IMG/VR virus record: IMGVR_UViG_2880389630_000006
Source: a virus
Lineage: Duplodnaviria > Heunggongvirae > Uroviricota > Caudoviricetes
Length of the DNA stretch: 41,015 bases
Strand: one strand, 5' to 3'
The notes beneath the pieces were generated by a model, which saw only the letters and a program-made list of their open reading frames with translations, made no database searches and was not told where the DNA came from. The position numbers were made by a program, and so were the translations under genes. Below, piece by piece: positions 8,309 to 32,399 of this stretch. The first letter of the stretch is position 1, and each line of letters begins with the position of its first letter.

Positions 8309-8320
8309 GTGACATGTCAC
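8309..8320. repeat. 12-bp perfect palindrome GTGACATGTCAC, copy 1 of 3 (function unknown)
   Basis: Exact sequence; lies between the lipoprotein stop codon and the terminator hairpin. Confidence 0.9.
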
Positions 8321-8323
8321 GAC

Positions 8324-8737
8324 TTATAAAGATGACTGATATTTTACAACTCTGTTCATGGCATCTTTTTTCACCGAGCTGATATCAGTTCTTATTTTGG
8401 CTTCGTCATTACTGCTTATCATGCTATTAATTTTTTGCACTGACATGCCGTTTCTTTCAGCCATTGCACATACAGCAGCATCGTATGAAGAACTCGCTGC
8501 GATGGATATCACCTTGTTACACTCAAACACAGCACCTTCAGCAATATCAGATGCCGATGAGGCTGGCTTGGTATAAGTCTTGACGTAGTGATCAATACAA
8601 CTATCCTTCGCCGTCTTGGCAAGAGAAAAATCCACTTTAACTTTGTCGCAATATGCCTTATCAACACCGTCATAAACATCATAGGATGTCGAGCAAGCGG
8701 ATATCAAAAATACCGATAACAGCAATAATTCCTTCAT
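8324..8737 (-). CDS. Lipoprotein, last gene of the structural operon (candidate receptor-masking or exclusion lipoprotein, or tail accessory protein)
   Basis: Lipobox LISAC after a signal peptide; SD aaggaac; 6 further Cys residues; immediately downstream of the 824-aa virion protein gene. Confidence 0.65.
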   Translation of the reverse strand: MKELLLLSVFLISACSTSYDVYDGVDKAYCDKVKVDFSLAKTAKDSCIDHYVKTYTKPASSASDIAEGAVFECNKVISIAASSSYDAAVCAMAERNGMSVQKINSMISSNDEAKIRTDISSVKKDAMNRVVKYQSSL

Positions 8738-8746
8738 TGTTGTTCC

Positions 8747-11221
8747 TTATTGCGGAGTGACATCCTGAGGTCGCCACCAGTATGTCTGGTTAAACTCTTT
8801 CTTCGAACGTTGCTCCATTTTACGCAAATAGCCTGGTGAAAAATACTCCTGCATCTGATTAAAGATCATGTGATCGAGAGCCGCCTTCAAGTACCAGAGA
8901 TTCGCACCAGGCATCAAACCTTTCCCAAGCTTAACCAGATCACCACCAGTCTGCTCATTCTTCCCTTCCACAGCATTTAACGGTATGCCCTGAGCAATCT
9001 TCACTACGTCATCAACCAGACCAGCTACCGGGCCAAGCATCGACGCTAGTGCGCCGCTCCCGTACCTGGTGTGGTCAGAGAAAAGAAAATCACCATACAA
9101 CCCTGCCCCACCACCTTTTAAAAATGCATTTATCCAGAATTTAACCATGTTGTCACCGGTCATTTCTTTTGGATTTCTCCCATTAATAAGATCAGTAATC
9201 TGCATGGAAAGAGCACCAAGCATGGTTGTGCTTGCTAAAAACGTTGCTATATATGCCGCACGCCCACCAGCAGACGGCATACCCATAGCGCGTGACCAGT
9301 GACGCATAACAACCGAGATAGGGAACGATTTAAACAGGAAAACACTTCTCGTTAATTCACCTTTCCATGTTCCACGCTGAAGACCAGACCCTACGAACAT
9401 CTGTTCACGTGCGCCCGGTGTAATAACAGCCATATCAACTTCTTCAGTTACGGCACCGAGCAGTTTACGCATTGCCTCAAATTTCACGCGTTCAGACTCA
9501 CCAAGATGTTTAACTGCTGAATCAGGGATACGCATAATGCTTTCCGGTGTCAGCATCGTATTATTACCGTTCCCCCAGTCCTCCTGTTGCGCCAGCTTCC
9601 ATACGCTCCAGTCTGTGTCAGTAATCCCTTTGCTTTTCAGGATACGAAAATCAGAGTCATCGAGGCTACGAAGGTCTGGTGTCCGTGACACTACTTCTCC
9701 CAGGCTTCCCATCATGGTTACGCCATAAGCGCGCTTGTGCGCATCTGACCATGCTGTAAGCCCACTGGCACGCATTACCGCCGTTGCCGCCCAACGAGAT
9801 ACTGACGGCCCCATATTATCCATCGCCCAGCGGTTAACGCTGCCAAGTAGAGATTCCATCGCCAGACCAGCGCGGCGCGCCCGCGCAAGTTCTGTACGGT
9901 TCGTTGGGTCCATAGCTTCAAGCTGGTTGCGGAATAACTGGTTCATTGGAAGGTTGGTCACCTTCGCAGACAGATACATGGTTCCAAGATCAGAGAACGA
10001 TGACAGCAACGCGGATCCGAGTCTGCTGGCAACCAGCCAGTTGCGGATATTGTCAGACCATCGCGCGATGTGCGGATTCGCTACAGGCTGTGTCTTTCCG
10101 GAAATAAAGTTGTACAGATTCTCTGTTTTGTTCGCCAGCCGCTCGACGCTACCGGTTTTACTCGGGTTAGCTGTTGCCGTTTCTGCCTTCACCTGATCAA
10201 GAAGGGAACGGAAAACATGATCGGGGTTTGGACCATATGTTTCCACCAAAGCAATATCTTTACTGATACCTTCCAGGTGACCGACCATGATTTCCCATAG
10301 AGAGCGATCGCCATAAAGTTGCTGATATTGCAGATAGGAATCTGCATCTTTGAAATGTATCTGTCGTGATGCATTACCACGGTTAGCACGTGCGCCGGAA
10401 ATTCGCATTCCGGTATCAGTAAGCTTATTCAGCCCACCAGTAGCGATCGTGTTATAAGCCTCTCCAAGAAATGCAGACAACTCGGCATCGTTCATCAGTT
10501 GTCCATCGGCTCGGGTATAATATTTGCGATCCAGCTTACCTATAACATCGCTAACCCACTTATCCTTTGATACCGCCCCAACCTTTTCCATAGAATGATG
10601 TTGAGGGATCCCCCAGTTTTCGAGATAGCCAATGTCCCCACCAGCATCATTAAACCGGCGGCGCAGCAGCTCTGTAACTTCTCTCCACGCCTTAGCACCT
10701 TTTCTTGCTTTAGCATTGCCAGTATTTTGCCCCCGCATTTCATATACCAGGTCACGTACGCCCGCTTCATCTTCAAACAGGCCAAAAAAGCGAGGATCAA
10801 CTGCTTCAAATGCCTCCTGCAATTGACTCAATGCATAATCACGAGTGGCTTTTGTTCTGGATTCAACAGAGAGGAAATTCGATTTACCGTCTGCATTAAA
10901 AGCAATAGTACGGTTAAGAGCGCCAAGTTTCCCATCAGCCCCTTGATAGCTATTGATAAATTTATCCAATCTCTGACGTGCGGCTATAGTGAGGGCCACA
11001 CGACGTTTCTTTAATGCCGCTTCTCGCTGTAATTCTTCAGATGCCAATTGTGCTGCACGATACAACCGTTCTGATTCGGAAAGTTGTCGCCACGACATAG
11101 GGTCATCACGAGCAATGGAGCGCATATTTCGATAAATGCGGTCTTCAATGTTCTGTATTTCTCGCGCCGTTAACGTGCGCTGCGCCGCCTGCTGGACCGC
11201 TTGTATACATTCCTGTCTCAT
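8747..11221 (-). CDS. Large virion internal / ejection protein (T7 gp16-like position)
   Basis: 824 aa, no TM or enzymatic motif recognised; assigned by position in the structural operon. Confidence 0.55.
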   Translation of the reverse strand: MRQECIQAVQQAAQRTLTAREIQNIEDRIYRNMRSIARDDPMSWRQLSESERLYRAAQLASEELQREAALKKRRVALTIAARQRLDKFINSYQGADGKLGALNRTIAFNADGKSNFLSVESRTKATRDYALSQLQEAFEAVDPRFFGLFEDEAGVRDLVYEMRGQNTGNAKARKGAKAWREVTELLRRRFNDAGGDIGYLENWGIPQHHSMEKVGAVSKDKWVSDVIGKLDRKYYTRADGQLMNDAELSAFLGEAYNTIATGGLNKLTDTGMRISGARANRGNASRQIHFKDADSYLQYQQLYGDRSLWEIMVGHLEGISKDIALVETYGPNPDHVFRSLLDQVKAETATANPSKTGSVERLANKTENLYNFISGKTQPVANPHIARWSDNIRNWLVASRLGSALLSSFSDLGTMYLSAKVTNLPMNQLFRNQLEAMDPTNRTELARARRAGLAMESLLGSVNRWAMDNMGPSVSRWAATAVMRASGLTAWSDAHKRAYGVTMMGSLGEVVSRTPDLRSLDDSDFRILKSKGITDTDWSVWKLAQQEDWGNGNNTMLTPESIMRIPDSAVKHLGESERVKFEAMRKLLGAVTEEVDMAVITPGAREQMFVGSGLQRGTWKGELTRSVFLFKSFPISVVMRHWSRAMGMPSAGGRAAYIATFLASTTMLGALSMQITDLINGRNPKEMTGDNMVKFWINAFLKGGGAGLYGDFLFSDHTRYGSGALASMLGPVAGLVDDVVKIAQGIPLNAVEGKNEQTGGDLVKLGKGLMPGANLWYLKAALDHMIFNQMQEYFSPGYLRKMEQRSKKEFNQTYWWRPQDVTPQ

Positions 11222-11226
11222 TTAAT

Positions 11227-13029
11227 TTAACCTCTCAAGAAACACGCCACAGCGACATCAAACAGGCTGGAATCCTGTATTGCCTGCTCACTTTCCCTGT
11301 TCGCTTCATCCAGCACTTCACGCGCGCTGCGCGATTGTGGATTACCATCATCATCCAGCACGGTGATTATCATGTCAGGTGATTCAAGCAGCGAGTCTTC
11401 AGCTATGCGCAGATCAATATCTCCTGCCTGATCCGCCATCATTTTTTGTTCTGCATGTTGCAATATTTTATCAGGCTCAAAAGGAGCTACTTCGTCTGGC
11501 GTCCTGACCTCTGCTGTTTTATAGAATGAAACAGCCTGAGCATTAAGTTCACTTTCTGCCTGCTGTCTCCGAGCCAGTTCTGCTCGAGCTTCAAAAAACT
11601 GACCGCCAGGCTCATGCGGTGCCAACGCGTTACGGGAAAATTCCAGGCGTTCTTGTGCCTGCCGGATTCGTTGTTCAATATCGCGAATTCTGGCCTGTTT
11701 ATCTGATCGAGCACGAGACAAAGCTTTACCGCTACCAGTTGGCTCTTCTGCAAGAATTTGTGCACGCTGTTCAGTGAGATTTTCAATAATTCGTTGGCTA
11801 TTAGCGATTTCAGACTGGTAAACCTGTCTATCTCCACGCGGCAAAAGCTGCGCGGCCTGTTCTTCAAGCAACCGATTTTCTATAGCGCGCGCCGTTACTC
11901 CATCATCTACAGATGACAGAGCCTCATTAACTGCCTGAGACAGCAGACTCTTGCGCCCAGGAATTTCACTGAAAGATGCAGACTCAACAATGCTGGCAAC
12001 GTCTACAGGTCTCCCCTGGCTAACATCAGACATAGCTTTTCGCAGAGCCTGAATGTGAGAATTGCGCGAAAGCACGTTGATCGGCACGCCGGGCGCAATA
12101 TCAATTTCAGCATGATGAGCGGCATTCGCCGCCAGTGCAGCATCAACATCAACTGGTGAAAAATTTGGTGCGCTTGTAGACTCGCCGCGAGAGTTAATAA
12201 ATCTGCCGACTCCACCAAAAGCCACCCCAAGAACAGCATCAATAGCAATTGCCTGTCGATCCAACACATCATACTGGTTAGCCATTTCGCTATAGCCACC
12301 ATCACGAAGCGTTTTTGCAGTAAGCCCGCGCTGTGCCATACCGAACGCAATATTTGTACCTGCGGCATAGGCAATATCTGGCGTTGCACGTACTGCTGTT
12401 GCCGCGGCGCGTCGCACTGAACTTTCACCCGTCCGCGCAAGCTGAGCCGCCACACCTTCCGCCAGCGCACCACCAGCACGTAACCCGAGACTCATAGGGA
12501 TCAGTGTTCCGGCACCAGCAGTAATACCCTGCACTAATCCCGCTTCCTGCGCCGTCCTGAAATCAACCCCCTGCGCTGTCAGTCGTTCAAACTCAGAAAA
12601 ACCCTGTAGCGAAGTTACCGCCGCAGCACCTCCGACCGGACCACCGAGCGTTGTACCGACAACAGCCTGCCCGCCCATATCGAACAACCCATAAAGAACC
12701 TGCCCTGCGGTTCCGGTTGTCGCGGCATCAGGCGTCAGCCGCTTAACCTGCTGCTCTGCTAGTTTTCTCTGCTCGGCAATGTATGAAACTGAAGTGTCAT
12801 TGAGCGAGGTGTTTTCGTTAACAAACTGAGCAATCGGGGATACGATTTTATCCATCCCTGCCCATAGCAACTGATCTGGCTTTGCCACCAGCCCGGAGTA
12901 CAAACCAGACAATGCCGCTCCTACAGCATTGTCGAAAAAACCAACATCGCTGTTAAAGCCAACTGGATTTGATGCTGCTTCGTCAAGCTGCTGATTCTGG
13001 TTTACTGGATTAAGGCCAAAGTAACTCAT
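11227..13029 (-). CDS. Virion internal protein, Gly/Ala-rich
   Basis: 600 aa, Ala/Gly-rich central region and coiled-coil C-terminal half; positional assignment. Confidence 0.55.
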   Translation of the reverse strand: MSYFGLNPVNQNQQLDEAASNPVGFNSDVGFFDNAVGAALSGLYSGLVAKPDQLLWAGMDKIVSPIAQFVNENTSLNDTSVSYIAEQRKLAEQQVKRLTPDAATTGTAGQVLYGLFDMGGQAVVGTTLGGPVGGAAAVTSLQGFSEFERLTAQGVDFRTAQEAGLVQGITAGAGTLIPMSLGLRAGGALAEGVAAQLARTGESSVRRAAATAVRATPDIAYAAGTNIAFGMAQRGLTAKTLRDGGYSEMANQYDVLDRQAIAIDAVLGVAFGGVGRFINSRGESTSAPNFSPVDVDAALAANAAHHAEIDIAPGVPINVLSRNSHIQALRKAMSDVSQGRPVDVASIVESASFSEIPGRKSLLSQAVNEALSSVDDGVTARAIENRLLEEQAAQLLPRGDRQVYQSEIANSQRIIENLTEQRAQILAEEPTGSGKALSRARSDKQARIRDIEQRIRQAQERLEFSRNALAPHEPGGQFFEARAELARRQQAESELNAQAVSFYKTAEVRTPDEVAPFEPDKILQHAEQKMMADQAGDIDLRIAEDSLLESPDMIITVLDDDGNPQSRSAREVLDEANRESEQAIQDSSLFDVAVACFLRG

Positions 13030-15539
13030 TGCGGAATATCTCCGGAGAATCTCTGACGCTTCTGTGTCAGATCAAGAACAACGGGAGAACCATCATCTTT
13101 TAGCAGATAACCAGTACCAAGTTTCACCAGGTACTGACTATCGCCGTAACTTTGCAAACCATACTGACCAGGCGGTGTTTTTATCCCTGTGCCAACAACT
13201 TGTTCACTCCAAGCCTGATTAACCTGCTTATCGAATTGCTCTGCAGACATTCCCCACGGCAAAAGAACATTCCCCATTCCGTTATAGTCATGCACGCCAC
13301 CTGTAGCTACGTTAACAGCCTGTTTCCAGATATCATTGTCAATTTCGCCTGATACCACGCCTTTTTTCGCCATCACACCAGCGTAATAGTCCTTTGCGAT
13401 CTCGTATGCCATTGATGCCCCCTGAGCATCACCAGCAAATGCATCCTTCACCATGTCAGAAAACTCAAGGCGAAGATCAGCATCTTTAGGCATCGGAATA
13501 CCTTTCGCGTCATCAGTACCTTTACGAGCCGCCGCGCCAGCAAGAATTGTCTGCGCAGCGGTTTCTGGAGACACGGAAACATCCGGATTAAACCAGTTTT
13601 TTTCTGCCAAAATACCACCTGGCTTATCCATCAGTATCCCGGCAACGGCAGCAGATGGAGCGTTGGCACTGATCTGCTGTAGTGCTGACATATACACCTG
13701 CCCACCACCAGTGCTCTGCCTGATGGTATCGAGATATGCTGCCTGTTGGGAAACGGGCGCATCACGAAAGAAAACACCGATCTGATTGGCCTCGTCTTTG
13801 GAAAAGAACGTCAGTGGAGTGCCATATGACTTAGCAAGGTCACTGACCTGAGCAGCACGCAAGGCAACGCTCTGTCCAAAGTTATCCTTATTGCTCATGT
13901 CGATAGGCTTTGCCTGTCCGGCGGCAAGAGAGAACTGCACAGGATCCGATTGCCGCTGCTTTATCACCTGATTTGCAGCCGAAACAACGTTGTCATAAAG
14001 AGCTGCGCGTGCCGCATACCCCTCCCCTGTCTCACCAGTATCCGGGCGTAATTGCTCAACATATGCTGTAATGCTGCTTGTCGGCATGTTGCGGAAAGAG
14101 CCTATATACTGTCCGGCGATCTGCGTATTCTTAAACTCGGTATATCGCAGGTTTCCTTCTCTGACTCCATAAGCTGCAATAAAATCAGCCTCACCAGGTG
14201 GGTTAGGAAATTCAACTCCACGCATATACGCAGCTGTTGCATCTCGAACCTGGCTGTCAATCATCGTTTTATATTCAGCCTGCTGCTGCCGACGCAGTTG
14301 ACCAGCCTGTCGCATAAAACTTGCCTGCGCCTCAGGAGATGCCGCATCGAATGCTGCATTACCGGTATAGCGTTTGGTGTTGGTTGGAATTGTTGATAAA
14401 CCAAGTGCTGCACTGACACCAGCAGTTAACTGCTGATCACTGTATGGCTGGCTACCGTTCTCATGATGGATAATGGCTGCACAAAGCGCCTTCAGGGTAT
14501 CAGGATTTGATGCATCGAGAGGCTCATCAGCAGAAACGCCAAGTTGTTCGCACACCGCTTTGATATACGACATTGTGTCATTTTTATCAGTGGGCGGTGC
14601 CCAGCGATTAATTATCTCGCTGACGGTATCAATACCCTGCCGCTGATACGACATCAGGTTCCGCCCTAATGCACGAATCCCGTGTTCAGGTGTTTCGAAT
14701 TTAGCAAATCGACCATCATCACCGGTCTGGCCTACCCACGGATTAGTTTTGCTGTATTCGAGATTTCCTGGGTTATTGTTGCGTATGCCACGGGCACGCT
14801 CGGAAGAGTCACTATCTGCTACAGCACGGCGAGCTCCAGCAGCAGTATCACTTAACTCGCCATTACTTTGGATGAATGCGGTCGCATTGTTTGCCGACCA
14901 CTGGGACAATGCAGCATCAGCAACCTTCTCTTTAAACTCGATTTTCTTGGCCTGGATTTGCTCGTCACTCCAGCCATGTGCAATGCCGTAATCCTCAATT
15001 TGCTGGAAAGTTTGCTTATTAGCCAATACGTATGCGGCGTTGTCGCCATACAATGCTGCGGCATTTTTACCATTGTTCAGCAGCGTAGCCTGAAACTGGC
15101 CTTCTTCGTAGGCATTTATTTGCCCTATCTCGTGCCGCCCTGCCTGCGTAGTGAACTGAATGCGCTGCTGCTGCGCCTGCTGCATGAAAGCATTACGAGC
15201 CTGTTCATCCGGCAGCGACATAGCCAGTTGTTCGACCTGAGCATCAAACTGCTGCGTATACTCATGGCCTTTTCCAATAGCATTTTTCCCTTTCAGGTTA
15301 AGCAATCCTGTTTCAGGATTATTCAGCAGATCACTGCTTATCTGACTGAGGTTAAGAGATGCCTCCTGAGCCAGAGCGATATTGGCACGCTGTTTTGCCT
15401 GACCAAAAACATCAATTGCCTCTGTCCCTGCCCGAACAAAAGCATCACCAATACCTGGCTGAGAAAACGTCTGCAAGCCTGCTGACTGAACTCCACGGCT
15501 CTGAACCTGACGGCCGGATACTGTTGGTACGACTGGCAT
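13026..15539 (-). CDS. Large virion internal / ejection protein (T7 gp15-like position)
   Basis: ATG at 15539 (MPVVPTVSG...) preceded by GGAGG and overlapping the upstream stop (TAATG); the track's 25-residue N-terminal extension is rejected. Confidence 0.55.
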   Translation of the reverse strand: MPVVPTVSGRQVQSRGVQSAGLQTFSQPGIGDAFVRAGTEAIDVFGQAKQRANIALAQEASLNLSQISSDLLNNPETGLLNLKGKNAIGKGHEYTQQFDAQVEQLAMSLPDEQARNAFMQQAQQQRIQFTTQAGRHEIGQINAYEEGQFQATLLNNGKNAAALYGDNAAYVLANKQTFQQIEDYGIAHGWSDEQIQAKKIEFKEKVADAALSQWSANNATAFIQSNGELSDTAAGARRAVADSDSSERARGIRNNNPGNLEYSKTNPWVGQTGDDGRFAKFETPEHGIRALGRNLMSYQRQGIDTVSEIINRWAPPTDKNDTMSYIKAVCEQLGVSADEPLDASNPDTLKALCAAIIHHENGSQPYSDQQLTAGVSAALGLSTIPTNTKRYTGNAAFDAASPEAQASFMRQAGQLRRQQQAEYKTMIDSQVRDATAAYMRGVEFPNPPGEADFIAAYGVREGNLRYTEFKNTQIAGQYIGSFRNMPTSSITAYVEQLRPDTGETGEGYAARAALYDNVVSAANQVIKQRQSDPVQFSLAAGQAKPIDMSNKDNFGQSVALRAAQVSDLAKSYGTPLTFFSKDEANQIGVFFRDAPVSQQAAYLDTIRQSTGGGQVYMSALQQISANAPSAAVAGILMDKPGGILAEKNWFNPDVSVSPETAAQTILAGAAARKGTDDAKGIPMPKDADLRLEFSDMVKDAFAGDAQGASMAYEIAKDYYAGVMAKKGVVSGEIDNDIWKQAVNVATGGVHDYNGMGNVLLPWGMSAEQFDKQVNQAWSEQVVGTGIKTPPGQYGLQSYGDSQYLVKLGTGYLLKDDGSPVVLDLTQKRQRFSGDIPQ

Positions 15540-19953: not shown

Positions 19954-19997
19954 TCCTGCAATAAAGGGGCCGAAGCCCCTTGTCTGATACGCGAGGC

Positions 19998-20333: not shown

Positions 20334-20343
20334 CGATATCCCC

Positions 20344-20781: not shown

Positions 20782-20832
20782 CTTCTTTCTCCATTAGTGG
20801 GTCTGTTACGACCCACTGGTTAATAACAGGCG

Positions 20833-21825
20833 TTACACCACACGGGCTTCTGTTTCCAGAAGCGCATCAGTTTCACGGATTGGTACACCACGGAATGAAG
20901 TCCACCACTCGCCTTCTGTCTCTTTTACGCTGATCGCCAGAGATGTTTTCTCCAGAGATTGCAGATCAAGAGCCTGGCCTACAGTGCGGTTCATGTAGAA
21001 CACCGGGCGACCCATTCCACGGTTTGGAATGCGATGCAGTGCTTTAACCATCAACTTCGCAATATTTGCGGCAGAGGAAGGTTCTGAAAGATTGCTGACA
21101 TCGATGTTTGCAATGCGAACAACATAACGCCAGTCACGCAGAGCAAGTCCGTTGTCCCATTTGTAATGGGTGCGATAGCCTTCGTACTTGCCGCCATTAG
21201 CATCTTCCAGTGTCACCTGGCCTTTATCTTCCATCTGGATGCCAGCCTTCTGCCCTTTCGGGAAGATGCCATGCACGGTGTTTTCGCCCCACACCACTAA
21301 CCAGATTGAGGTGTTATCTGTACCCGTGCCACCAGCATCAATGATGTTCTGAGCATTACCCGCAGACAGGCTGGAATAGCGGGAGGACAGTCCCATAAAC
21401 TGCTGAGGGTTAACGCTGGAATCACCATAAAACAGTGTCTGCGCCATCTGCTGATTCATCGCCTCAATAAATGCGCGGTCTTCAGACAGGCGGAATTCGG
21501 CGGTATTACCGTTCAGATCAGCCAGTGACTTATCGACTTCAGCATAGGTTTCCAGCATGCCAACGTAATCGGTGACCTGCACTGTGGTTGATTTGCTTGG
21601 CTGTACGCCATAGTTCAGCAAACGCCAGGTAGCTGAAGGTAAACCAGAACGAATGGTGGTTCGGTGTCCGGTAGGAAGGTTCCCTTCGACAAAAGGCATA
21701 TCCTGAAGGATCGGGTTAGTTTGACCGAGAAGCTCGATAATCTTATCGACTTTCCCGTTTGGATCGACGCGCTTACCCCAGTCAGCCAGCGTTAGCGCAG
21801 TTAAGCCTTTAACAGACATTGTCAT
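20833..21825 (-). CDS. Major capsid protein
   Basis: 330 aa, directly downstream of the scaffold gene; size and position typical of a major head protein. Confidence 0.65.
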   Translation of the reverse strand: MTMSVKGLTALTLADWGKRVDPNGKVDKIIELLGQTNPILQDMPFVEGNLPTGHRTTIRSGLPSATWRLLNYGVQPSKSTTVQVTDYVGMLETYAEVDKSLADLNGNTAEFRLSEDRAFIEAMNQQMAQTLFYGDSSVNPQQFMGLSSRYSSLSAGNAQNIIDAGGTGTDNTSIWLVVWGENTVHGIFPKGQKAGIQMEDKGQVTLEDANGGKYEGYRTHYKWDNGLALRDWRYVVRIANIDVSNLSEPSSAANIAKLMVKALHRIPNRGMGRPVFYMNRTVGQALDLQSLEKTSLAISVKETEGEWWTSFRGVPIRETDALLETEARVV

Positions 21826-21833
21826 TTCCTCTC

Positions 21834-22535
21834 TTATTTGCCATAGAGCACTTCGGCCGCACTACGCTGGCCTTCATTACCACCGGTGACCATGCCATCT
21901 TCAGACATCGCCTTTCCGATTTTCACGAACGTTTTGACCAGATCAGGGTGATTACCCAGCCCGGTGGTGTTCAGATATTCTTTGAGTTCAGGTGTCCCGA
22001 ACTGGTCAAGCGCACGCTGTGCGGCGCTAAGGTTAGAAATCAACTTGTCGCCACCGATTTCTTTGTCAGCTTTTACATCCGCAGCCCACTGCTCGGTTGT
22101 TTTCTGCCAGGCTTCTGCCTGGCGCTGCTGAACACCTGCCAGAATCTTCGGATAAGCATCAACCAGCTTTTGCGCTTGCTCGTTGGTCAGGTTTAGTTCT
22201 CGCGCCACCGGCTCGAATTCCTTCAACGCTTCTGTATCCAGCTCTACGCCTTCGGCAGCCTGAAACTCGTACTTCTCAGGCGCACCATCTGGTTTATCGC
22301 CGTCCTTTTTTTCATCCTGCTTATCGTTTTCAGGCTTTTTGTCATCAGCAGGTTTATCGCCATCAGCAACAGGTTGTGGCTTATCACCTTCCGGTTGTGA
22401 TGGATCACCAACTGGAGCAGGGTTATCACCTGCAGGCGCTGACGGTTCTGACGCAGCCGGAGCTGCTCCACCATCGACTGGTTGCTCATTGCAAAGACGG
22501 CGATACAGCAAACGCTCAAATAAATTCATGATCAC
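21834..22535 (-). CDS. Scaffolding protein
   Basis: Highly acidic Pro/Asp/Lys-rich N-terminal half (PAPVGDPSQPEGDKPQPVADGDKPADDKKPENDKQDEKKDGDKPDG), helical C-terminal half; between portal and capsid genes. Confidence 0.6.
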   Translation of the reverse strand: MIMNLFERLLYRRLCNEQPVDGGAAPAASEPSAPAGDNPAPVGDPSQPEGDKPQPVADGDKPADDKKPENDKQDEKKDGDKPDGAPEKYEFQAAEGVELDTEALKEFEPVARELNLTNEQAQKLVDAYPKILAGVQQRQAEAWQKTTEQWAADVKADKEIGGDKLISNLSAAQRALDQFGTPELKEYLNTTGLGNHPDLVKTFVKIGKAMSEDGMVTGGNEGQRSAAEVLYGK

Positions 22536-22828
22536 TCCTGTTCACTGGCCTCTTTGGCCATCTTCAAATACTGTTCAGGGCAATGCGCCATAACGCGCTG
22601 AAACAGTTCCAGCGCCAGATTGCGTTGCCCCTCATTAAATGCCATTGCCATAGCGTCCATCGGTGAGATAGCGGAAAACACACGGCCTTTCTCCAGCACC
22701 GACCAGACAACGCGACGCCCCTGTTCACTGCTCATGACAAAGCGAATGTCATCAATTTCACGCTGTGCCATGTCACGTTGCTTACGGGCGTTTTCTTCTT
22801 TCAGTTGATCATCTTCGTAATCTGTCAT
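22532..22828 (-). CDS. Small head-assembly-associated protein
   Basis: 98 aa ORF overlapping portal stop and scaffold start (translational coupling). Confidence 0.45.
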   Translation of the reverse strand: MTDYEDDQLKEENARKQRDMAQREIDDIRFVMSSEQGRRVVWSVLEKGRVFSAISPMDAMAMAFNEGQRNLALELFQRVMAHCPEQYLKMAKEASEQE

Positions 22829-24504
22829 TGTGATTGCCCACCCTGACCACTAACTGCATTCGCCATAGCTGACAAAACACTCGGATCCGAAGTTTTAGCT
22901 TCGCTTAGCGTCTTGGCGCCCTGTGCCGCCGCCATTCCCATCGCCATCATTTGTTGCTGCTGTTGCTGCTGTGCCCGTTGCTGGCGAGCCTGCTCAACCT
23001 GTTCCTGCGGAACAATGACGGTTGGAGACACTCCGGACATATCAGCGAATGCATCGATCGCCTGATCAACATTGAGTTTGTCGAGAGCTTCTGGTTTCGC
23101 TTGCGCAAGTTGACCAATGAAGTTGACCGTAGACGCCAGACTGGACAGGCCGATAGACTTCTGCGCCTGAGCCATGACGGAAATGTATTCGACCTTCAGG
23201 GGCATACCTTCCATCGCGTCAGGCGGTGGCGGCAGCATGTTTTTACGCACCATCATCGAGAAAGCGCGGTCAATGAGAGGATTAAGACATTCGTCGTTCA
23301 GACGCTCCAGAACCGGCCCCAACATCAGAAGTTTTTCTTCTTTCATTTCGATCACCGCTTCAACAGGCATCGAGCGGGTATTGATGTTCTGCAACATCAT
23401 GAACAGATCGACAAAGTAGGCGCTGTTAATGATTTGACGAGTGTCCTGAATGTCTGCCACCAAATCTGCTGTACTGGGGTTAACCAGATAAGCAGGCCTG
23501 AAGCCATCCTGACCAGTAATCTGATCGATATACGTGATGTCGCCAGGAAGAAGGGAGGCGCGCTGATTCTTGAGGGAAGTCGGAGCAACCATCGGCGGAT
23601 TGGTGGCTTTATCAATCAACTGCGACTTGCGCTTCTGGAGAAGCTGCAATGCCTTAACAGGTCCAAGCGCCAGCATACCCGGGCATGATGATCCATAAAC
23701 ATCTTCGCCGTTAACTTCCCAGCGCGGAGCCATAATTGGAAACTCATCGAATCCGGACTCACGCAACAACTTGTCGTTATCTCCACCAACCTCGTAATAA
23801 ACCGATTTGAATGGCTTGTTCTTGCTATCCAGCTTCGATGTATCGCGGTCAATGTTCGGGTAAACCGAATGCATCACTTCGATCCACTTCTCGTAGGTGC
23901 CGCTTTCCCACATGCTTTTTACGGATTCGCTGACGTTATTTAGCCCGAACTCCTGAACAAGCTGACGAACAGTCATAGAGAACTTGCGAAAACAGGTGTC
24001 AACACTGCCACGAGGTGAGTTAGCCAGGTAGTAACTGCCTATCGGGAATGGCATTGTGCGAATGATGTCCTCGTCATCCTCCAGCACTGCCATTGCACCA
24101 GTGCTGTATGTGCCGAGGCTTCCGTATAACTGCGGAAGAGACTGGTAGAGATTCGAATTATTGAACATATCGTTCATGCGGTTCTGAACTGCCTCAAGCC
24201 ACAACTTAACAGGGCCATAATCCATCATTTCAGGATCTGGCGTAGCCAGGCGAAACCACGGACGCGCAGGGCTTGTGATGCCTGACATCATGCCGCTGGC
24301 GAGAGTGCGCGCCGCCATAGTCCCGGTCGAATCAATAATGCGTGTATTGCGTCGATCGTTACGGTTGACCTCAGAAGTCAGAAAGCGGGAACCACGCGGG
24401 TTGATGTAATCACTCAACTCGCGCCAGTGCGGCTCGAACGACTGACGCTCGCTTTCAAGTTGTGCGAACTGTTTGTTCAATCGCTCTTTAGTTGTTTCCG
24501 CCAT
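22825..24504 (-). CDS. Portal protein
   Basis: 559 aa, first large gene after terminase; Gln-rich C-terminal tail (QQRAQQQQQQQMMAMGMAAAQ) typical of podovirus portals. Confidence 0.7.
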   Translation of the reverse strand: MAETTKERLNKQFAQLESERQSFEPHWRELSDYINPRGSRFLTSEVNRNDRRNTRIIDSTGTMAARTLASGMMSGITSPARPWFRLATPDPEMMDYGPVKLWLEAVQNRMNDMFNNSNLYQSLPQLYGSLGTYSTGAMAVLEDDEDIIRTMPFPIGSYYLANSPRGSVDTCFRKFSMTVRQLVQEFGLNNVSESVKSMWESGTYEKWIEVMHSVYPNIDRDTSKLDSKNKPFKSVYYEVGGDNDKLLRESGFDEFPIMAPRWEVNGEDVYGSSCPGMLALGPVKALQLLQKRKSQLIDKATNPPMVAPTSLKNQRASLLPGDITYIDQITGQDGFRPAYLVNPSTADLVADIQDTRQIINSAYFVDLFMMLQNINTRSMPVEAVIEMKEEKLLMLGPVLERLNDECLNPLIDRAFSMMVRKNMLPPPPDAMEGMPLKVEYISVMAQAQKSIGLSSLASTVNFIGQLAQAKPEALDKLNVDQAIDAFADMSGVSPTVIVPQEQVEQARQQRAQQQQQQQMMAMGMAAAQGAKTLSEAKTSDPSVLSAMANAVSGQGGQSQ

Positions 24505-24518
24505 TTCAATGACTCCGG

Positions 24519-24725
24519 TTACTGACCAAGCAGCGTTTTACCGCTGGTATTAGCGGTTGATGTGTCGCCCTGAGAACCGGTAAGCAGCGTAGAACTACGA
24601 CCAGCAGCAGCGCGACGGCGACGTGTTTCTTCGTCGCGGGCATCAACAACGGCGGCATCCTGCTCCTGTGGTGCTGCCTGAACTTCTGGTGTTGCAGGCA
24701 CTGATGGTGAGCTACCCATGCACAT
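24519..24725 (-). CDS. Small ORF upstream of portal
   Basis: 68 aa with GGAG SD 9 nt upstream; Ala/Thr/Arg-rich; may be spurious. Confidence 0.3.
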   Translation of the reverse strand: MCMGSSPSVPATPEVQAAPQEQDAAVVDARDEETRRRRAAAGRSSTLLTGSQGDTSTANTSGKTLLGQ

Positions 24726-24793
24726 ATCAATGACTCCGTACGCAATTAAATCATTACCAATTTAACCACATATGATTTATTTATCGTAGAATG

Positions 24794-24831
24794 TTGACAT
24801 TTAACGCGTGAATTATTACCTTTCAGGTAAC
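24794..24831 (+). promoter_or_regulatory. Putative promoter (TTGACA -35) with overlapping operator ATTACC-TTTCA-GGTAAC upstream of the tRNA
   Basis: TTGACA at 24794-24799; the 16-bp operator core at 24815-24830 is identical to the site at 5931. The -10 element is ambiguous. Confidence 0.4.
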
Positions 24832-25152
24832 TAAAGAGCTCATTCTGGTTACTAACCTGACTGGCTTGTCGTTAAATTAAACAGGTGGAGTGAGCTTTTA
24901 TTTTGAGCAGTACGGCGTATGGCACATGCGCCGATAGCGGTCTGGATACGTTTAAGGGGCACCCTCCCTTGCTCGGGCAAACGAACCAGGTAGCCGGAAT
25001 GTGCAAGTCGAGCGGTTTTATTCCGCGCACGGGGATTCACCATCCCGGCGATTCGGTGTGACGCCTCGGAAGAGACGAGGGTACAACGATGAGAGCATTT
25101 ATGGAGCCGCGACAAAGTGTGGCGCCTTAACAGGCTAAGTGCTCTCAGCGTT

Positions 25153-25229
25153 GTGGCATTAGCTCAGTCGGACAGAGCAACCGCCTTCTAAGCGGTTGGT
25201 CGCAGGTTCGAATCCTGCATGCCACGCCA
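25153..25229 (+). tRNA. tRNA-Arg (anticodon UCU)
   Basis: Hand-folded cloverleaf: 7-bp acceptor stem GTGGCAT/ATGCCAC, D-arm gctc-agtcggaca-gagc, anticodon stem accgc/gcggt with loop CT-TCT-AA, T-arm gcagg-TTCGAAT-cctgc, discriminator G plus encoded CCA. Resembles but is not identical to enterobacterial argU. Confidence 0.85.
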
Positions 25230-25427
25230 GAATCACGCCTAAGGACCGTGATGCCAGAAGTTCCAGGGGCTTGGCGGTGATGGTTTCCCTTGAAGGACTA
25301 TCACCGCCCTTTTTACAGCAGGACGCCATTGCGATGACTTCATGCTGTAAACCCGTACAGCCACGGAAGGCATAACTCATTGCTTCCAGTTCGCCCGGTT
25401 CGCCGGGCATTTTTTTAAGGTGAGATT

Positions 25428-25799
25428 ATGAACGACAAGCAAATCGAAAAAGAAATCGTTGAGAAAGGCAAAACGGCACCGCGCGTTACGCCAGACCATA
25501 TCGAAGGCATTATTGCTCAGGAGGCATATTTCACAGCAGAAGATGGTGCCTTTGGCAAAGCCATAAAAGCGAAACATACTGGCGGAGAGGTAAACTACCA
25601 GCCGCACGAATCACTTTCTCTGCTGACGTTCTGCGTCCTGGTGCTGCGCAACGGCTTCACCGTCACCGGAGAGAGCGCCTGTGCAAGCCCGGAAAACTTT
25701 GATGCAGAAATTGGTCGGAAGATTGCCCGGCAGAATGCTGTAAACAAAATCTGGATGCTCGAAGGTTACTTGCTGAAGCAGAAGCTAAGCGAGCAATAA
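25428..25799 (+). CDS. Conserved phage protein, Gp49-like (tentative)
   Basis: 123 aa on the strand opposite the flanking terminase/portal genes; family assignment from memory of the Gp49-type signature (LTFCVLVLRNGFTVTGES), unverified. Confidence 0.45.
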   Translation: MNDKQIEKEIVEKGKTAPRVTPDHIEGIIAQEAYFTAEDGAFGKAIKAKHTGGEVNYQPHESLSLLTFCVLVLRNGFTVTGESACASPENFDAEIGRKIARQNAVNKIWMLEGYLLKQKLSEQ

Positions 25800-25802
25800 C
25801 AC

Positions 25803-25814
25803 CGTGACATGTCA
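25803..25814. repeat. 12-bp perfect palindrome GTGACATGTCAC, copy 2 of 3
   Basis: Exact sequence, between the stop codon at 25797-25799 and the terminator hairpin. Confidence 0.9.
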
Positions 25815-25846
25815 CAAACAGCCAGCCGATGAGCTGGCTTTGTTTT
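25815..25846 (+). terminator. Rho-independent terminator
   Basis: Stem agccagc/gctggct with loop cgatga followed by tttgtttt. Confidence 0.7.
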
Positions 25847-25889
25847 ATCCTCATCAGAGGATATCAACGACATTATCCCCACCAGCGGA

Positions 25890-27365
25890 TTAAGCATAGG
25901 GATCGTAATCTGTGATGGCCTTGCCTTGCTGGTTCTGCTGCCCGGGAATTCGCAGACGCTTCGACACAGGGAACGCAAACGTCAGCAGTAGCGCATCGCC
26001 TTTACCAGGCGAACGCCCAAGCCGCTCCTTGATATCTTCCTTCGGTTCGATAACGATTTTACCGTCCACTCGAACTTTGTACTCTGCCGCCGACAGATCG
26101 TCCGCTGTTTCCTGGTCATCCAGCATCCCGCCCAGCCTCAGCCATGTCTTGCATGAGTTGAACATCTCCCCACGCTTGTTGAGCATCTGCTGGTCAGTAG
26201 ACGCGCCACCGAACGGAACAAGTTGCCATGTACGACCCCAGCCGTCACCGATTGACTTCAAACCGGTTCCGTAACCGAAGTCGATGAACACCGCGTCAGC
26301 CTGATACTGGTCTTCAAAGTCAGCGATACGCTTCGCCATAATCAGATCGTCGGTAGTCTTGTTGCCAGTCCACAGCACCTTACTGTGTAGCCCCTGCCGC
26401 AGGTATATCACAGCGTCATCAACGCCGGAGTATGCCGGGTCAACGCCGATTATCACCGGAGCATGTGCAACCTGCGCAGCGGTGACCACCCGTTTCATTG
26501 CCTCGTCAGTAAGTCCGGTAGGGATAAACTGCAATTCAGATGCATCCGGGAATATGCCGCGCACACGGATTTTAACGAAGTCGCTGTCTTCCCCGTAGTC
26601 ATCAACCCATTTCTGCAACTGCTGTTTGTTAGTGCCTTCCACCGTCCGGCTGTCAATCTGCGCAGTTTTCCAGCGGTGTTTATATTTGCGGAAACATTCG
26701 CGGAAACGCCCGGTGTTACGTGTAGGGTTTCCGAACGCCACCCAGATAATCTCAGTGTCTTCGTCCGTAAGCGCACCCTCAGCAACTTCCCACACCAGAT
26801 CCGCAATGTTCGACGCTTCATCGAATACCACGATGATGCGTTTGCGCTCGTTGTGTAGTCCGGCGAATGCCTCAGTGTTGTGCTCAGACCAGGGTATTGC
26901 GTCAGCTCGCCACCGCTTGTCGTGTCCAGGATCATTGCTGTACATCGCGGTAGCGGTACAGGTAAACCAGTCTTTCGTGATAGCAAGGTTCGACCACTTG
27001 ATAATTTCCGGCCAGGTCTTCGTTCGTAGCTGGTTGTCGGTGTTGGCGGTCACCACAACCTTACAATCCTCGCAAGTGGACATGCCCCAGTTGATCAGCA
27101 TTGAGATGAATGCGGATTTACCAATACCGTGACCCGAAGCGCGTGCCAGCATAAGCGGCTGATAGCGCGTCTCTGGATTCTGCAGGTGATCACGTATCTC
27201 TCGGAACGCATCAGCCTGCCACTGACGTGGACCGGTGGCATGTGCCAGTTCAGTCCCATCTTCCCCCCACGGGAACGCATAGAGGGCATAGCCAAGCGGA
27301 TCGTGAGTGAACCCTGCAATATCCTCGATTAACTGCTCTTCAGGAGATAACGCTGTATCTGTCAC
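25890..27365 (-). CDS. Terminase large subunit
   Basis: 491 aa; P-loop-like ARASGHGIGKSAF in the N-terminal ATPase region, acidic nuclease-type motifs in the C-terminal half; follows the small-subunit gene with ATGA overlap. Confidence 0.8.
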   Translation of the reverse strand: MTDTALSPEEQLIEDIAGFTHDPLGYALYAFPWGEDGTELAHATGPRQWQADAFREIRDHLQNPETRYQPLMLARASGHGIGKSAFISMLINWGMSTCEDCKVVVTANTDNQLRTKTWPEIIKWSNLAITKDWFTCTATAMYSNDPGHDKRWRADAIPWSEHNTEAFAGLHNERKRIIVVFDEASNIADLVWEVAEGALTDEDTEIIWVAFGNPTRNTGRFRECFRKYKHRWKTAQIDSRTVEGTNKQQLQKWVDDYGEDSDFVKIRVRGIFPDASELQFIPTGLTDEAMKRVVTAAQVAHAPVIIGVDPAYSGVDDAVIYLRQGLHSKVLWTGNKTTDDLIMAKRIADFEDQYQADAVFIDFGYGTGLKSIGDGWGRTWQLVPFGGASTDQQMLNKRGEMFNSCKTWLRLGGMLDDQETADDLSAAEYKVRVDGKIVIEPKEDIKERLGRSPGKGDALLLTFAFPVSKRLRIPGQQNQQGKAITDYDPYA

Positions 27366-27994
27366 TGATTACCATCCTGACGTTCTTTGAGTCGCTTCCT
27401 GGCTGCTGCTATGCGATCAGCAATTGTCACATTCACATTAACATCCAGACGTTCTTTGAATGCGTTGACATCAACATGCTTACCAATCAGCTCAAGGTTC
27501 TTCACCTTGTCAGGCCATTTCACCTTCTTCAGGATATGCTCGACATCCTCAACAGAGAGATCCGCCTCGCCATTCTCTTTTTGCAGGGAAGCCTGGGTTG
27601 TCTTGATGGTAGCGATATCCATAGCACTGAGAGAGGTACGCCAGACCTTCGGCCATTCAGCGATCGGCTTCATCCCGCCGTCATCGTTCAGTATATCCAG
27701 CACGTCCATCTGGTCGATCTCCACCAGGCGCATGAGAACGTAATCAGCACTGACGCGCATTCGTTTGTTGCGCTCCTCCATCAACTCGGCAATCCGTTTT
27801 TGAATGCGTTCATCGCGCATCATGACACTTGCTTTAACTGCCGCTGTATTTGGGGAGAATCCTGCGTTAATCGCTGCCTGAGTCTGGTTTTCAGGCGTTT
27901 TGATGTATGACTGGCAATAAGCCTCCTGCATTGCTGTTAGTGGCTTAAATTGCGTTGATTTACGTTTATAGGTTTTAGGTTCAGCAGGCATCAT
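27362..27994 (-). CDS. Terminase small subunit
   Basis: Internal ATG at 27994/27991 (MMPAEPK...); the track start is TTG and its extension runs through a tandem DNA repeat, so it is rejected. Confidence 0.6.
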   Translation of the reverse strand: MMPAEPKTYKRKSTQFKPLTAMQEAYCQSYIKTPENQTQAAINAGFSPNTAAVKASVMMRDERIQKRIAELMEERNKRMRVSADYVLMRLVEIDQMDVLDILNDDGGMKPIAEWPKVWRTSLSAMDIATIKTTQASLQKENGEADLSVEDVEHILKKVKWPDKVKNLELIGKHVDVNAFKERLDVNVNVTIADRIAAARKRLKERQDGNQ

Positions 27995-28068
27995 AACCAC
28001 CGTGGTAATAGTTACCGTTGTGGTAATAGTACCATGCAAAATAAAGCCGCCATAGTTGGCGGCAGTAT

Positions 28069-28281
28069 TCAAAGTCCATCAAATTCATCGTAAAAACTCT
28101 CGTCAAGATACCATTCCCATTTACCGCGAATGAAAATTACATCCTCGCCGCAAGGGTGCTGACTGTCGATAACTATATCCCTCCTGGCGCAACCATACTT
28201 ATTCATGAGAAATTTAACCTCTTTCGGAAAATTTGCTGAGTTATCTCTCATATCTTCAAGGTCGTAGCGTATTTTTGGCAT
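28069..28281 (-). CDS. Hypothetical small protein
   Basis: ATG at 28281 (MPKIRYDL...); AT-rich; the track's GTG start at 28302 lies inside the 12-bp palindrome. Confidence 0.4.
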   Translation of the reverse strand: MPKIRYDLEDMRDNSANFPKEVKFLMNKYGCARRDIVIDSQHPCGEDVIFIRGKWEWYLDESFYDEFDGL

Positions 28282-28290
28282 AACACCTTC

Positions 28291-28302
28291 GTGACATGTC
28301 AC
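28291..28302. repeat. 12-bp perfect palindrome GTGACATGTCAC, copy 3 of 3
   Basis: Exact sequence, overlapping the stop codon of the 28299-28640 gene. Confidence 0.9.
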
Positions 28303-32354: not shown

Positions 32355-32399
32355 TAAAAACCACATAAGACACGAAATCAATAGATTTTAGAATATTTT

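Follow-up and report, generated by a model that had tools for sequence, protein, structure and literature searches.

matS, the site of MatP, reads GTGAC[AG]N[TC]GTCAC and is 13 bp long with a 3-bp spacer (PMC3603311, PMC8669397). It is found as a few dispersed copies in the chromosome terminus, and MatP, which organises the Ter macrodomain in E. coli and relatives, is a small ribbon-helix-helix dimer with a four-helix bundle and a coiled coil. Among phages, the temperate mycobacteriophage L5 reportedly carries the "stoperators" of Brown et al. in 1997, repressor sites scattered over short gaps between genes, where they block elongation, while the T4-type phages are said, after Arbiol et al. 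in 2010, to have mobile regulatory cassettes termed PeSL (promoter-early stem-loop). Phage N15 has its dispersed palindromic SopB sites IR1-IR4 (GTGCGACC-NN-GGTCGCAC), and lambda has the antitermination systems Q/qut and N/nut.

The window, i.e. the whole stretch of 41,015 nucleotides analysed here (IMG/VR record IMGVR_UViG_2880389630_000006), is an epsilon15/phiV10-like (Uetakevirus) prophage of E. coli. Searched in full on both strands, it holds exactly three perfect copies of the 12-bp perfect palindrome GTGACATGTCAC, which lie among the following features.

8291-8308, minus strand: intrinsic terminator hairpin, AGGCCGC-TTTC-GCGGCCT then TGTTTTT, which ends the structural operon
8309-8320: copy 1 (S1) of GTGACATGTCAC, between the stop of 8324-8737(-) and the terminator 8308-8291(-)
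8324-8737, minus strand: lipoprotein gene (137 aa, phrog_8691, lipobox FLISAC), the variable last gene of the late operon
25428-25799, plus strand: cargo (moron) gene of the N4 Gp49 / Sf6 gene 66 family, PF13876
25804-25815: copy 2 (S2) of GTGACATGTCAC, between the cargo-gene stop and a terminator shared with terL
25820-25839, plus strand: intrinsic terminator of the cargo transcript
28027-27993: two ATTACC-N5-GGTAAT sites, after the terminator 28046-28063(-) and ahead of terS
28046-28063, minus strand: intrinsic terminator, GCCGCC-AACT-ATGGCGGC then TTTATTTT, which closes the early-right unit
28069-28281, minus strand: small gene (70 aa, phrog_1541), inserted between S3 and the terminator
28291-28302: copy 3 (S3) of GTGACATGTCAC, which includes the TGA stop (28301-28299) of 28299-28637(-)
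28299-28637, minus strand: gene of the candidate binder, a 112-aa uncharacterised protein (WP_001129693.1; phrog_536 'transcriptional regulator')

All three copies show the same order of stop codon, palindrome and intrinsic terminator. S1 is found 3 nt past the stop of the final gene of the structural operon with the terminator directly abutting, and S2 is set off by 4 nt on either side, from the Gp49-family stop (25799) and from the terminator 25820-25839(+), which on the late strand, after terL, is merely a hairpin. The first-pass annotation had placed the copies at gene or operon ends, and each does have a stop codon on one side and an intrinsic terminator on the other; its coordinates hold for copies 1 and 3, while copy 2, given as 25803-25814, is one base off. 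A 14-mer, CGTGACATGTCACA, is common to all three copies, with copy 1 on the minus strand. The claim that three perfect copies are not due to chance is borne out, as the composition of the window predicts 0.037 GTGAC-N2-GTCAC sites against the three found (Poisson P = 8e-6) and none of 100 dinucleotide-preserving shuffles of the window contained any copy of GTGACATGTCAC. Only one copy with a single mismatch is present, GTGCCATGTCAC at 22765 within a CDS, and it is a chance near-match, because it reads GTGACATGGCAC or GTGACATGGCGC in relatives and varies as ordinary coding sequence does.

The three sites are real and conserved. In relatives from E. coli, Salmonella and Enterobacter they are invariant and keep their positions next to flanking genes and terminators that differ, and they are kept across the genus despite ~ 20% nucleotide divergence. 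Loss or displacement of the palindrome in related prophages had been named beforehand as the outcome that would speak against a functional element, and its position is instead conserved genus-wide. Of 80 related IMG/VR loci, 73 have an unchanged S1 and the other 7 differ by single point mutations, and the site is flanked in the related loci by at least five unrelated upstream genes and several different terminators; it is equivalently placed in phiV10, epsilon15, SPN1S and Tyrion, and relatives carry other genes in place of the lipoprotein gene 8324-8737(-). S2 is kept in 65 related loci, some of which have another terminator beside the same palindrome, and S3 was found in 77. The arrangement of S3 at the stop of the gene is also seen in epsilon15, SPN1S, Tyrion, N15 and phiKO2, and in Uetakeviruses there is always a stop codon no more than 9 nt from the palindrome.

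Relatives lose homology to one another 0-10 nt past the palindrome, beside cargo hotspots. At S2 it ends 0-10 nt beyond the palindrome in all locus pairs with non-homologous cargo, and on the cargo side the sequence information of the related loci falls from 2.0 bits to ~ 0.5 bits within 6-18 nt; at S3 the homology of relatives stops 2 nt past the palindrome, and in P2-like phages it ends exactly at the last base. The hotspot of 25428-25799(+) displays at least five alternative genes across relatives, of which the Gp49-family gene is one, and five unrelated cargo families all have a 4-nt spacer between stop and S2. The homology that 25428-25799(+) shares with Sf6 and other phages extends no further than the stop codon, so the palindrome lies outside the cargo cassette. 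In related loci one cargo gene is joined across the palindrome to two different terminators, locus L053 has tandem cassettes with a palindrome in each, and remnants of the small gene of S3 also adjoin S2. This gene, 28069-28281(-), is missing from most relatives and the left edge of its insertion is 2 nt from the palindrome. Among the defence and anti-defence cargo of the hotspots are a Tad2-like gene (Uetakeviruses) and a reverse-transcriptase-like one (P2-like phages).

Outside the genus the motif follows the gene 28299-28637(-). GTGAC-N2-GTCAC and a homolog of this gene occur together in podo-, myo-, sipho- and P2-like phages; the motif is present in 59 of 63 species-dereplicated loci carrying the gene (90 sites against 1.15 expected) and in 57 of 61 homolog-carrying P2-like IMG/VR loci (62 sites against 1.09 expected), counts that are not phylogenetically independent within each phage family. 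In 42 of the 63 species-level loci a site is found at the gene's own stop codon. The co-occurrence is exclusive, with no motif in the 1.42 Mb of 80 P2-like loci that lack the homolog and none in the negative controls P2 and PY54. The unrelated phages ZF40, N15, phiKO2 and Vibrio phage K233 have three sites each where 0.03-0.05 are expected (P ~ 1e-5 each). The myovirus ZF40 has GTGACATGTCAC three times, once 2 nt past the homolog's stop codon, whereas the three copies of N15 and phiKO2 read GTGAC[TG/CA]GTCAC and lie at homologous places, one on the stop codon of gene 46. Furthermore, among 49 prophage proteins the 28299-28637(-) product is the only one with homologs in all six unrelated motif-bearing phages. 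The hosts of the motif-bearing phages are nearly all Enterobacterales, Vibrio or Aeromonas; one motif locus is on a contig labelled Pseudomonas lundensis.

The architecture of the motif is strict. Across 1.2 Mb of homolog-bearing loci, spacers of N0 to N8 were counted 3, 1, 90, 2, 1, 1, 4, 1 and 1 times respectively, so that N2 is the only enriched length, and the everted arrangement of the half-sites is absent from these loci. The central two bases are AT, TG/CA, GC, AC or CC depending on the lineage while the half-sites GTGAC/GTCAC are constant, and as RNA the palindrome gives a hairpin of 4 bp and -1.2 kcal/mol, on par with shuffled sequence. Because the spacer bases vary, the half-sites are fixed and the RNA hairpin is weak, recognition of double-stranded DNA by a dimer is favoured. 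Indeed, symmetric half-sites, a fixed spacing and co-inheritance with one protein family, the marks of a generic dimer operator, are all found here. Concerning placement, sites are ~ 10-fold enriched near terminator-like hairpins family-wide, but only ~ 22% of them are adjacent to a terminator, and those of N15 and ZF40 include intragenic positions, so that a single transcriptional mechanism is not established. The asymmetric N15 sites have both orientations relative to transcription, several sites of other phages are closely followed by a Shine-Dalgarno sequence, and P2-like phages have arrays of sites with ~ 33-bp phasing upstream of predicted cargo promoters.

The candidate binder belongs to the epsilon15 gp49 / N15 gp46 family; its gene is the final conserved one of the early-right operon. 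Its N-terminus is basic, and C40, C79, C82 and C99 are invariant cysteines. The family (phrog_536) comprises ~ 940 clusters at 90% identity; its prophage hosts are Escherichia, Salmonella, Klebsiella, Citrobacter, Pantoea, Erwinia, Providencia, Yersinia and Pectobacterium, and it is also present in Vibrio and Aeromonas phages, in N15 and in the model phages epsilon15 and phiV10. Pfam and PDB searches with the protein gave no significant match to any DNA-binding family, nor did Foldseek return a match for its AF2 model (pLDDT only 68). The weak structural matches of the model are mostly ribbon-helix-helix proteins, MatP among them, and faintly hint that the N-terminal part may adopt a ribbon-helix-helix-like fold, a class defined by a beta-alpha-alpha arrangement and intertwined dimers. 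The predicted beta-strand region differs between lineages, whereas the half-site does not. In the searchable literature neither the motif nor any function for the family came up.

From these comparisons we infer that GTGACATGTCAC is probably the cognate dimer-binding site of the 28299-28637(-) product and acts as a boundary element. The protein, whose gene comes last in the early operon, would probably bind double-stranded DNA as a two-fold symmetric dimer reading GTGAC/GTCAC across the 2-bp spacer, with predicted sites at three transcription-unit ends. Bound at these junctions it could control whether RNA polymerase stops or continues, and such control would shield the lytic operons from the cargo genes interleaved with them. 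Ahead of cargo promoters in P2-like phages, the sites would serve as an operator array. Since it is the one invariant sequence beside fast-turning cargo, the palindrome would also have become the junction for cargo exchange. The first-pass annotation had proposed a phage-regulator site or a module boundary, and both general ideas gain support, but not the proteins it named, since AlpA-like and PerC-like homologs are found in none of six unrelated motif-bearing phages. If confirmed, the pairing would provide a widespread 'hypothetical' phage protein family with a function and with a DNA target that can be tested, and the palindrome would be a new punctuation mark of temperate-phage genomes, coinciding base-for-base with the edges of defence/anti-defence cargo hotspots; the motif could then be used for finding cargo loci and may account for the regulation or exchange of cargo.

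The sharp homology breaks could alternatively mean that the palindrome is primarily a recombination junction for cargo swaps, any regulatory role being secondary, a reading we consider possible but doubtful. It would then be a short shared sequence, possibly recombinogenic via a bound protein or via the phage RecT / PD-(D/E)XK system. Homology ends at 0-10 nt (S2), 2 nt (S3) and 0 nt (P2-like phages), the constant 4-nt spacing of S2, the gene joined to two terminators, the tandem cassettes and the displaced small-gene remnants all fit such a junction, as do the RecT and exonuclease encoded by the prophage. However, an essential conserved site abutting fast-turning cargo would also give sharp boundaries, and no recombinase is associated with the motif. 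Moreover, the N15 and phiKO2 sites are away from cargo boundaries, one of them inside repA, and the exclusive pairing with a small non-nuclease protein together with the strict 2-bp spacer argues for protein recognition and not microhomology. Very unlikely, in our estimate, is a direct role of host MatP, which would read the palindromes as variants of matS, or of sites acting on MatP/MukBEF/ZapB, with the phage protein as cofactor or competitor. Indeed, GTGACATGTCAC is the matS consensus GTGACATTGTCAC minus one central base, with identical half-sites (PMC8669397, PMC3603311), and the hosts are nearly all from taxa that have MatP. Yet N2 alone is enriched and the N3 spacing of matS is at background, 80 E. 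coli P2-like prophages without the phage gene lack the motif though their hosts have MatP, and 500 prophages are without true matS (PMC3603311); the phage protein has no detectable sequence similarity to MatP, and the locus labelled Pseudomonas lundensis departs from the host range.

An element acting at the RNA level, where a small post-stop hairpin would be a processing, stability or antitermination signal, is suggested by the transcription of the three window copies as 3'-UTR directly before a terminator hairpin, by the sites 5' of Shine-Dalgarno sequences in other phages and by the constant proximity to Uetakevirus stop codons. We nevertheless regard it as highly improbable: shuffled sequences fold equally well, lineages differ in the would-be loop bases but not in the stem halves, N15 has its asymmetric sites in either transcription orientation, and a perfectly two-fold symmetric site with a constant 2-bp spacer is what dimeric DNA binding typically shows. 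The chance that the prophage MT-A70 methyltransferase, as had been proposed from the CATG core, or a restriction/homing endonuclease acts on the palindrome is close to negligible. The sequence includes CATG as well as ACATGT, and an MT-A70 gene is present in the prophage, but the central bases, CATG core included, vary across lineages, none of the six unrelated motif-bearing phages has an MT-A70 homolog, and there are merely three sites per genome at fixed positions.

Compared with the described systems, the palindrome and its putative binder resemble MatP/matS in the 5-bp half-sites and their inverted orientation, in having few dispersed sites and a small protein, and in a host range of Enterobacterales and Vibrio. 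They differ in the spacer, 2 bp instead of 3 bp (90 N2 sites against 2 at N3, which is background), and no window copy has the 3-bp spacer of a matS site; four invariant cysteines mark the phage protein, which has neither the four-helix bundle nor the coiled coil of MatP, and its sites lie at stop codons and cargo borders of phage genomes instead of the chromosome terminus. The one-base difference raises the question of how phages relate to, or avoid, the host chromosome-organising system. As a long shot, the pair could be a phage-borne MatP/matS analogue whose near-matS tags host MatP cannot read. A small site-specific DNA organiser might then bridge or loop a few tagged sites on the phage or prophage genome, or load or unload SMC-type complexes (MukBEF, or SMC-based defences, e.g. 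Wadjet or Lamassu); the tagged points would, as a side effect, become exchange hotspots for defence/anti-defence cargo, a conserved 'cargo dock' common to unrelated temperate phages.

Like the stoperators that L5 reportedly has, the palindrome of this temperate phage is a short, dispersed site at gene boundaries, often over start or stop codons, but stoperators are asymmetric, orientation-dependent, ~ 30 per genome and bound by the immunity repressor, whereas the palindrome is symmetric, present ~ 3 times per genome and associated with a different protein. PeSL, as reported, is also a repeated short sequence that flanks hyperplastic regions at the junctions of shuffled genes; it is, however, a promoter plus hairpin of ~ 50 bp with no dedicated binding protein, while the palindrome is 12 bp long, linked to a protein family and placed before terminators. 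The 28299-28637(-) gene has a Q-like position as the last early gene before the late genes, with sites ahead of terminators, but its product has no homology to lambda Q or N, the sites are not promoter-proximal, and ZF40 and N15 encode a separate Q-like protein besides the homolog. The SopB sites of N15, one of which is close to the gene of its binder as here for the putative one, differ in sequence and are read by a ParB-family protein, and N15 has both systems side by side; the palindrome is not a SopB centromere repeat, its sequence being different and sop genes being absent from the window. Neither is it an integron attC, an imperfect palindrome of 57-141 bp with an R/L core beside an IntI integrase, as the element is a 12-bp perfect palindrome without IntI and the sole integrase of the prophage is P4-type. 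For CRP (TGTGA-N6-TCACA) the spacing had already been called wrong, and rightly so, as the TGTGA-like halves are 2-4 nt apart, not 6, and N6 is not enriched; the likeness to matS, which the first-pass annotation does not mention, is far closer. The putative immunity operators of the prophage are a motif separate from the palindrome, and the cI-cro region of the window has no palindrome-like site. This operator motif, ATTACC-N5-GGTAAT, is found at 15 sites in the window, at positions other than the palindrome copies, and the epsilon15 record annotates equivalents of both these sites and the terminator 28046-28063(-).

Three copies of the 12-bp perfect palindrome GTGACATGTCAC are present in the window by exact count, as the first-pass annotation had claimed, and the shuffled sequences contain none. 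The first and third positions given there are right, while the middle copy was one base off and lies at 25804-25815. The generalised pattern, GTGAC-N2-GTCAC, is expected 0.037 times in the window (P = 8e-6). All copies share the same geometry, in which a stop codon is followed after 0-4 nt by the palindrome and then by an intrinsic terminator with its T-run in the direction of the gene. Their placement at a gene or operon end was correctly recognised:

S1, 8309-8320, minus strand: lipoprotein gene stop at 8324, palindrome, then hairpin 8308-8291
S2, 25804-25815, plus strand: Gp49-family gene stop at 25799, palindrome, then hairpin 25820-25839
S3, 28291-28302, minus strand: TGA of gene 28299-28637(-) within the palindrome, then a small inserted gene, then hairpin 28063-28046

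Each of the three sites adjoins both a terminator and cargo. Along the long minus-strand transcription the order is early operon, S3, terS-terL, S2, portal through virion genes, S1, and tail fibre with lysis. The sole copy with 1 mismatch, at 22765, is inside a coding sequence, drifts as coding sequence in relatives and was attributed to chance.

The window corresponds with 100% identity to 1452056-1493070 of NZ_CP018991.1 (E. coli strain Ecol_AZ146) and holds an epsilon15/phiV10-like prophage (genus Uetakevirus) which adjoins yfgI and has the integrase at its end. Exact copies are found at the same three places in Salmonella phages epsilon15 and SPN1S and in Enterobacter phage Tyrion (DNA about 80% identical), and among 160 IMG/VR loci the exact palindrome is observed at S3 in 77, at S2 in 65 and at S1 in 73, the remaining loci carrying mostly single point mutations in it. 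In phage phiV10 the S1 and S2 copies are present and the S3 copy, at the record junction, has 1 mismatch; the record is cut inside the palindrome, between GTGA and CATG, simply because the annotator broke the sequence after the final stop codon. A cos or pac end is unsupported, given three copies per genome, also far from cos in cos phages (N15). The Rz spanin gene, which closes the lysis operon, has a degenerate fourth copy at its stop codon in SPN1S (L164, 26722; GTGACATGTCAT, 1 mismatch) and in epsilon15 (L083, 26618; GTGACATGGCAT).

Conservation does not extend to the flanks of the palindrome, the sequence information dropping from 2.0 bits within it to 0.5-0.9 bits on its variable side. 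No fewer than five unrelated genes are found ahead of it at S1, where the terminator beyond it also differs between loci, with several kinds present. S2 is bordered by cargo from at least five unrelated families, and at S3 the window's 70-aa gene is an insertion beginning 2 nt past the palindrome. For pairs of loci with unrelated cargo, every pairwise alignment stops 0-10 nt past the palindrome.

Because S3 overlaps the stop codon of the gene for a 112-aa protein (28299-28637(-)), phages of other kinds carrying a homolog were examined. This protein belongs to phrog_536 ('transcriptional regulator'), is epsilon15 gp49, resembles N15 gp46 and is named merely 'hypothetical protein' or 'phage protein' in databases. 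The following phages carry the motif:

Pectobacterium phage ZF40 (myovirus), with a 67% identical homolog: GTGACATGTCAC three times without mismatch, once 2 nt past the homolog's stop
N15 and phiKO2 (linear-plasmid siphoviruses), with an about 35% identical homolog: GTGAC[TG/CA]GTCAC three times, in places that are homologous in the two phages (on the stop codon of gene 46, within repA, and upstream of the terminator of the antirepressor operon)
Vibrio phage K233, with a 31% identical homolog: GTGAC-NN-GTCAC three times, once about 20 nt before terS
Yersinia P2-like phage 42.18: one site

Each three-site result has P of about 1e-5. Furthermore, the motif is present in 57 of the 61 P2-like IMG/VR loci with a homolog, which together with two Vibrio loci hold 62 sites against 1.09 expected. 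After species dereplication, 59 of 63 genomic loci with the homolog, from Escherichia to Providencia, Xenorhabdus, Pantoea, Erwinia and Serratia, carry it (90 sites, 1.15 expected), and a site lies at -15 to +40 nt from the gene end in 42 of the 63. No motif was found in P2, PY54 and 80 P2-like loci (the loci totalling 1.42 Mb), all without the gene. Counts by spacer for N0 to N8 are 3, 1, 90, 2, 1, 1, 4, 1 and 1, only the 2-bp spacer being enriched. Two homologs whose stop codon carries the palindrome come from contigs assigned outside the enteric bacteria: L376, labelled Pseudomonas lundensis (54% GC), and L358, an Advenella MAG whose site layout is that of Rahnella loci and which may be mis-binned.

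Among the 49 proteins of the prophage, the 112-aa protein alone has a homolog in every one of the six unrelated phages that bear the motif. The AlpA-like, PerC-like and MT-A70 proteins, proposed in the first-pass annotation as acting on the palindrome, have zero homologs in the six and are rejected as binders; its idea of a regulator site and module boundary was right, and the proteins it named were wrong. The 28299-28637 protein family probably has the palindrome as its cognate site. Within the site the halves are fixed, the two central bases differ by lineage (AT, TG/CA, GC, AC, CC, GT, GG), the asymmetric N15 sites can face either way with respect to transcription, and the palindrome as an RNA hairpin reaches only -1.2 kcal/mol, no better than shuffles; these features fit a symmetric dimer on double-stranded DNA.

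The protein itself shows no match in Pfam, PDB and NCBIfam searches (in NCBIfam, none significant), and homology to MatP, TraR or Pfam RHH families is not significant. The family alignment displays a basic N-terminus (ERK..QR.R), invariant C40, C79, C82 and C99, and an R43-P49-Y50-E54 block. In the AF2 model (pLDDT 68), residues 5-18, 30-43 and 52-75 form helices and the Cys-rich C-terminal part is a loop region; the model gave no Foldseek match against PDB. A weak match to a CopG-like 'LexA regulated protein' (E 0.05) agrees with this, and DNA binding by the 112-aa protein is therefore plausible. When homologs of greater diversity or relatives of MatP were sought, the best 120 matches listed were all close relatives.

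MatP, an RHH protein, is confined to enteric bacteria and relatives, and this is also the host range of the motif-bearing phages. In the host, MatP recognises GTGAC[AG]N[TC]GTCAC, for which the E. coli consensus is GTGACATTGTCAC (PMC3603311, PMC8669397), and the palindrome equals this matS consensus minus one central base. However, matS spacing is not enriched in the motif-bearing phages (N3 = 2 versus N2 = 90), true matS is reported absent from prophages (PMC3603311), MatP and the phage protein have no detectable similarity, and E. coli prophages without the phage gene lack the motif (80 P2-like loci). MatP/matS is treated as the closest known system and the palindrome is not counted as a matS member. 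The SopB centromere sites of N15 differ in sequence from the motif and are distinct from its N15/phiKO2 sites. The literature search for the exact 12-mers returned no relevant paper, and two recent hotspot papers have no word for a palindrome, a conserved motif or an inverted repeat. That a phage DNA-binding protein has dispersed cognate sites is a familiar arrangement; new in this pair are the matS-like half-sites with a 2-bp spacer, the site on the protein's own stop codon, the placement at cargo borders and the presence in temperate phages of podo-, myo-, sipho- and P2-like type.

In P2-like phages with the regulator (L173-L233; e.g. L215 10247-10948, L202 13005-14762) there are two variable cargo loci. 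The first begins right after the regulator's stop codon; the second has a palindrome array on one side and the portal (Q) terminator on the other, and lies beyond a G+C-rich stretch taken to be cos. The array consists of a small hairpin, O1 (1 mismatch), 21 nt, O2 (perfect), 22 nt and a GTGACA half-site which is at the same time the -35 element of a predicted cargo promoter. From phage to phage, homology stops exactly at the last base of O2, and the cargo of the second locus, past O2, includes membrane proteins and a 585-aa reverse-transcriptase-like protein. Family-wide, 22% of sites are near a terminator compared to 2% of random positions, and a general link to terminators is only partly borne out. 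The common denominator would be a protein-bound boundary that separates cargo from the core genome or one transcription unit from another, with transcriptional insulation or read-through control as the favoured mode of action. The full statement, with this transcriptional boundary role included, appears reasonably probable, with less assurance than the pairing of site and protein.

The sharp breaks of homology may mean that the palindrome itself promotes exchange, or that it is merely a conserved essential site beside fast-turning cargo. A cargo hotspot separates terL from the portal operon (window 25230-25890; in loci L003-L082 it lies about 75 nt after terL). The Gp49 / Sf6-gene-66 family gene (25428-25799(+)) found here is replaced in other loci by, among others, an about 140-aa family with three C-terminal variants, a 113-aa protein or, in L017, a Tad2-like anti-Thoeris protein (PF11195, E 3e-24). 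Since homology of the Gp49-family gene to Sf6 and other phages reaches the stop codon and no farther, the palindrome belongs to the locus and is ruled out as part of the cassette. Compatible with exchange at the palindrome are the distance from stop codon to palindrome at S2, always exactly 4 nt, the tandem cassettes with one palindrome each (L053), and the finding of the same cargo gene with different terminators on the far side of the palindrome. So are small-gene remnants: the small inserted gene 28069-28281(-) ends in ...YDEFDGL*, phages without it retain ...DEFDGF* after S3, and an 8-aa mini-ORF, MKYEFDGF*, abuts S2 in L019, L023, L027, L041 and L058. The recurrence of this C-terminus at S3 and S2 suggests that segments moved between palindrome copies.

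An immunity-repressor operator was also considered for the palindrome and is ruled out, because the repressor motif is a different sequence located at transcription-unit starts. Indeed, ATTACC-N5-GGTAAT carries the 'repressor binding' annotation in the epsilon15 record, and the window, which uses the same motif, has 15 sites with up to 2 mismatches against 1.08 expected:

ATTACC-N5-GGTAAT sites in the window: 5931-5947, 6311, 7344, 24815-24831, 27993-28027, 32338-32416, 34346, 34731-34747, 35443-35521

These starts include late ones (terS, portal operon, tail fibre), and late operons may therefore be under direct repressor control. The minus strand carries the late genes (terS, terL, portal through virion proteins, tail fibre, lysis), among which small 'moron' genes of the opposite strand are interspersed; the moron region between the portal operon and terL also has a tRNA-Arg gene at 25153-25229(+), upstream of the Gp49-family gene. 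The annotated terS (27362-28072(-)) starts at 28072 and reads through the strong terminator hairpin 28063-28046 and two ATTACC..GGTAAT sites, while in epsilon15 the terS start is located after hairpin and sites; the PGAP start in the window is probably too far upstream.
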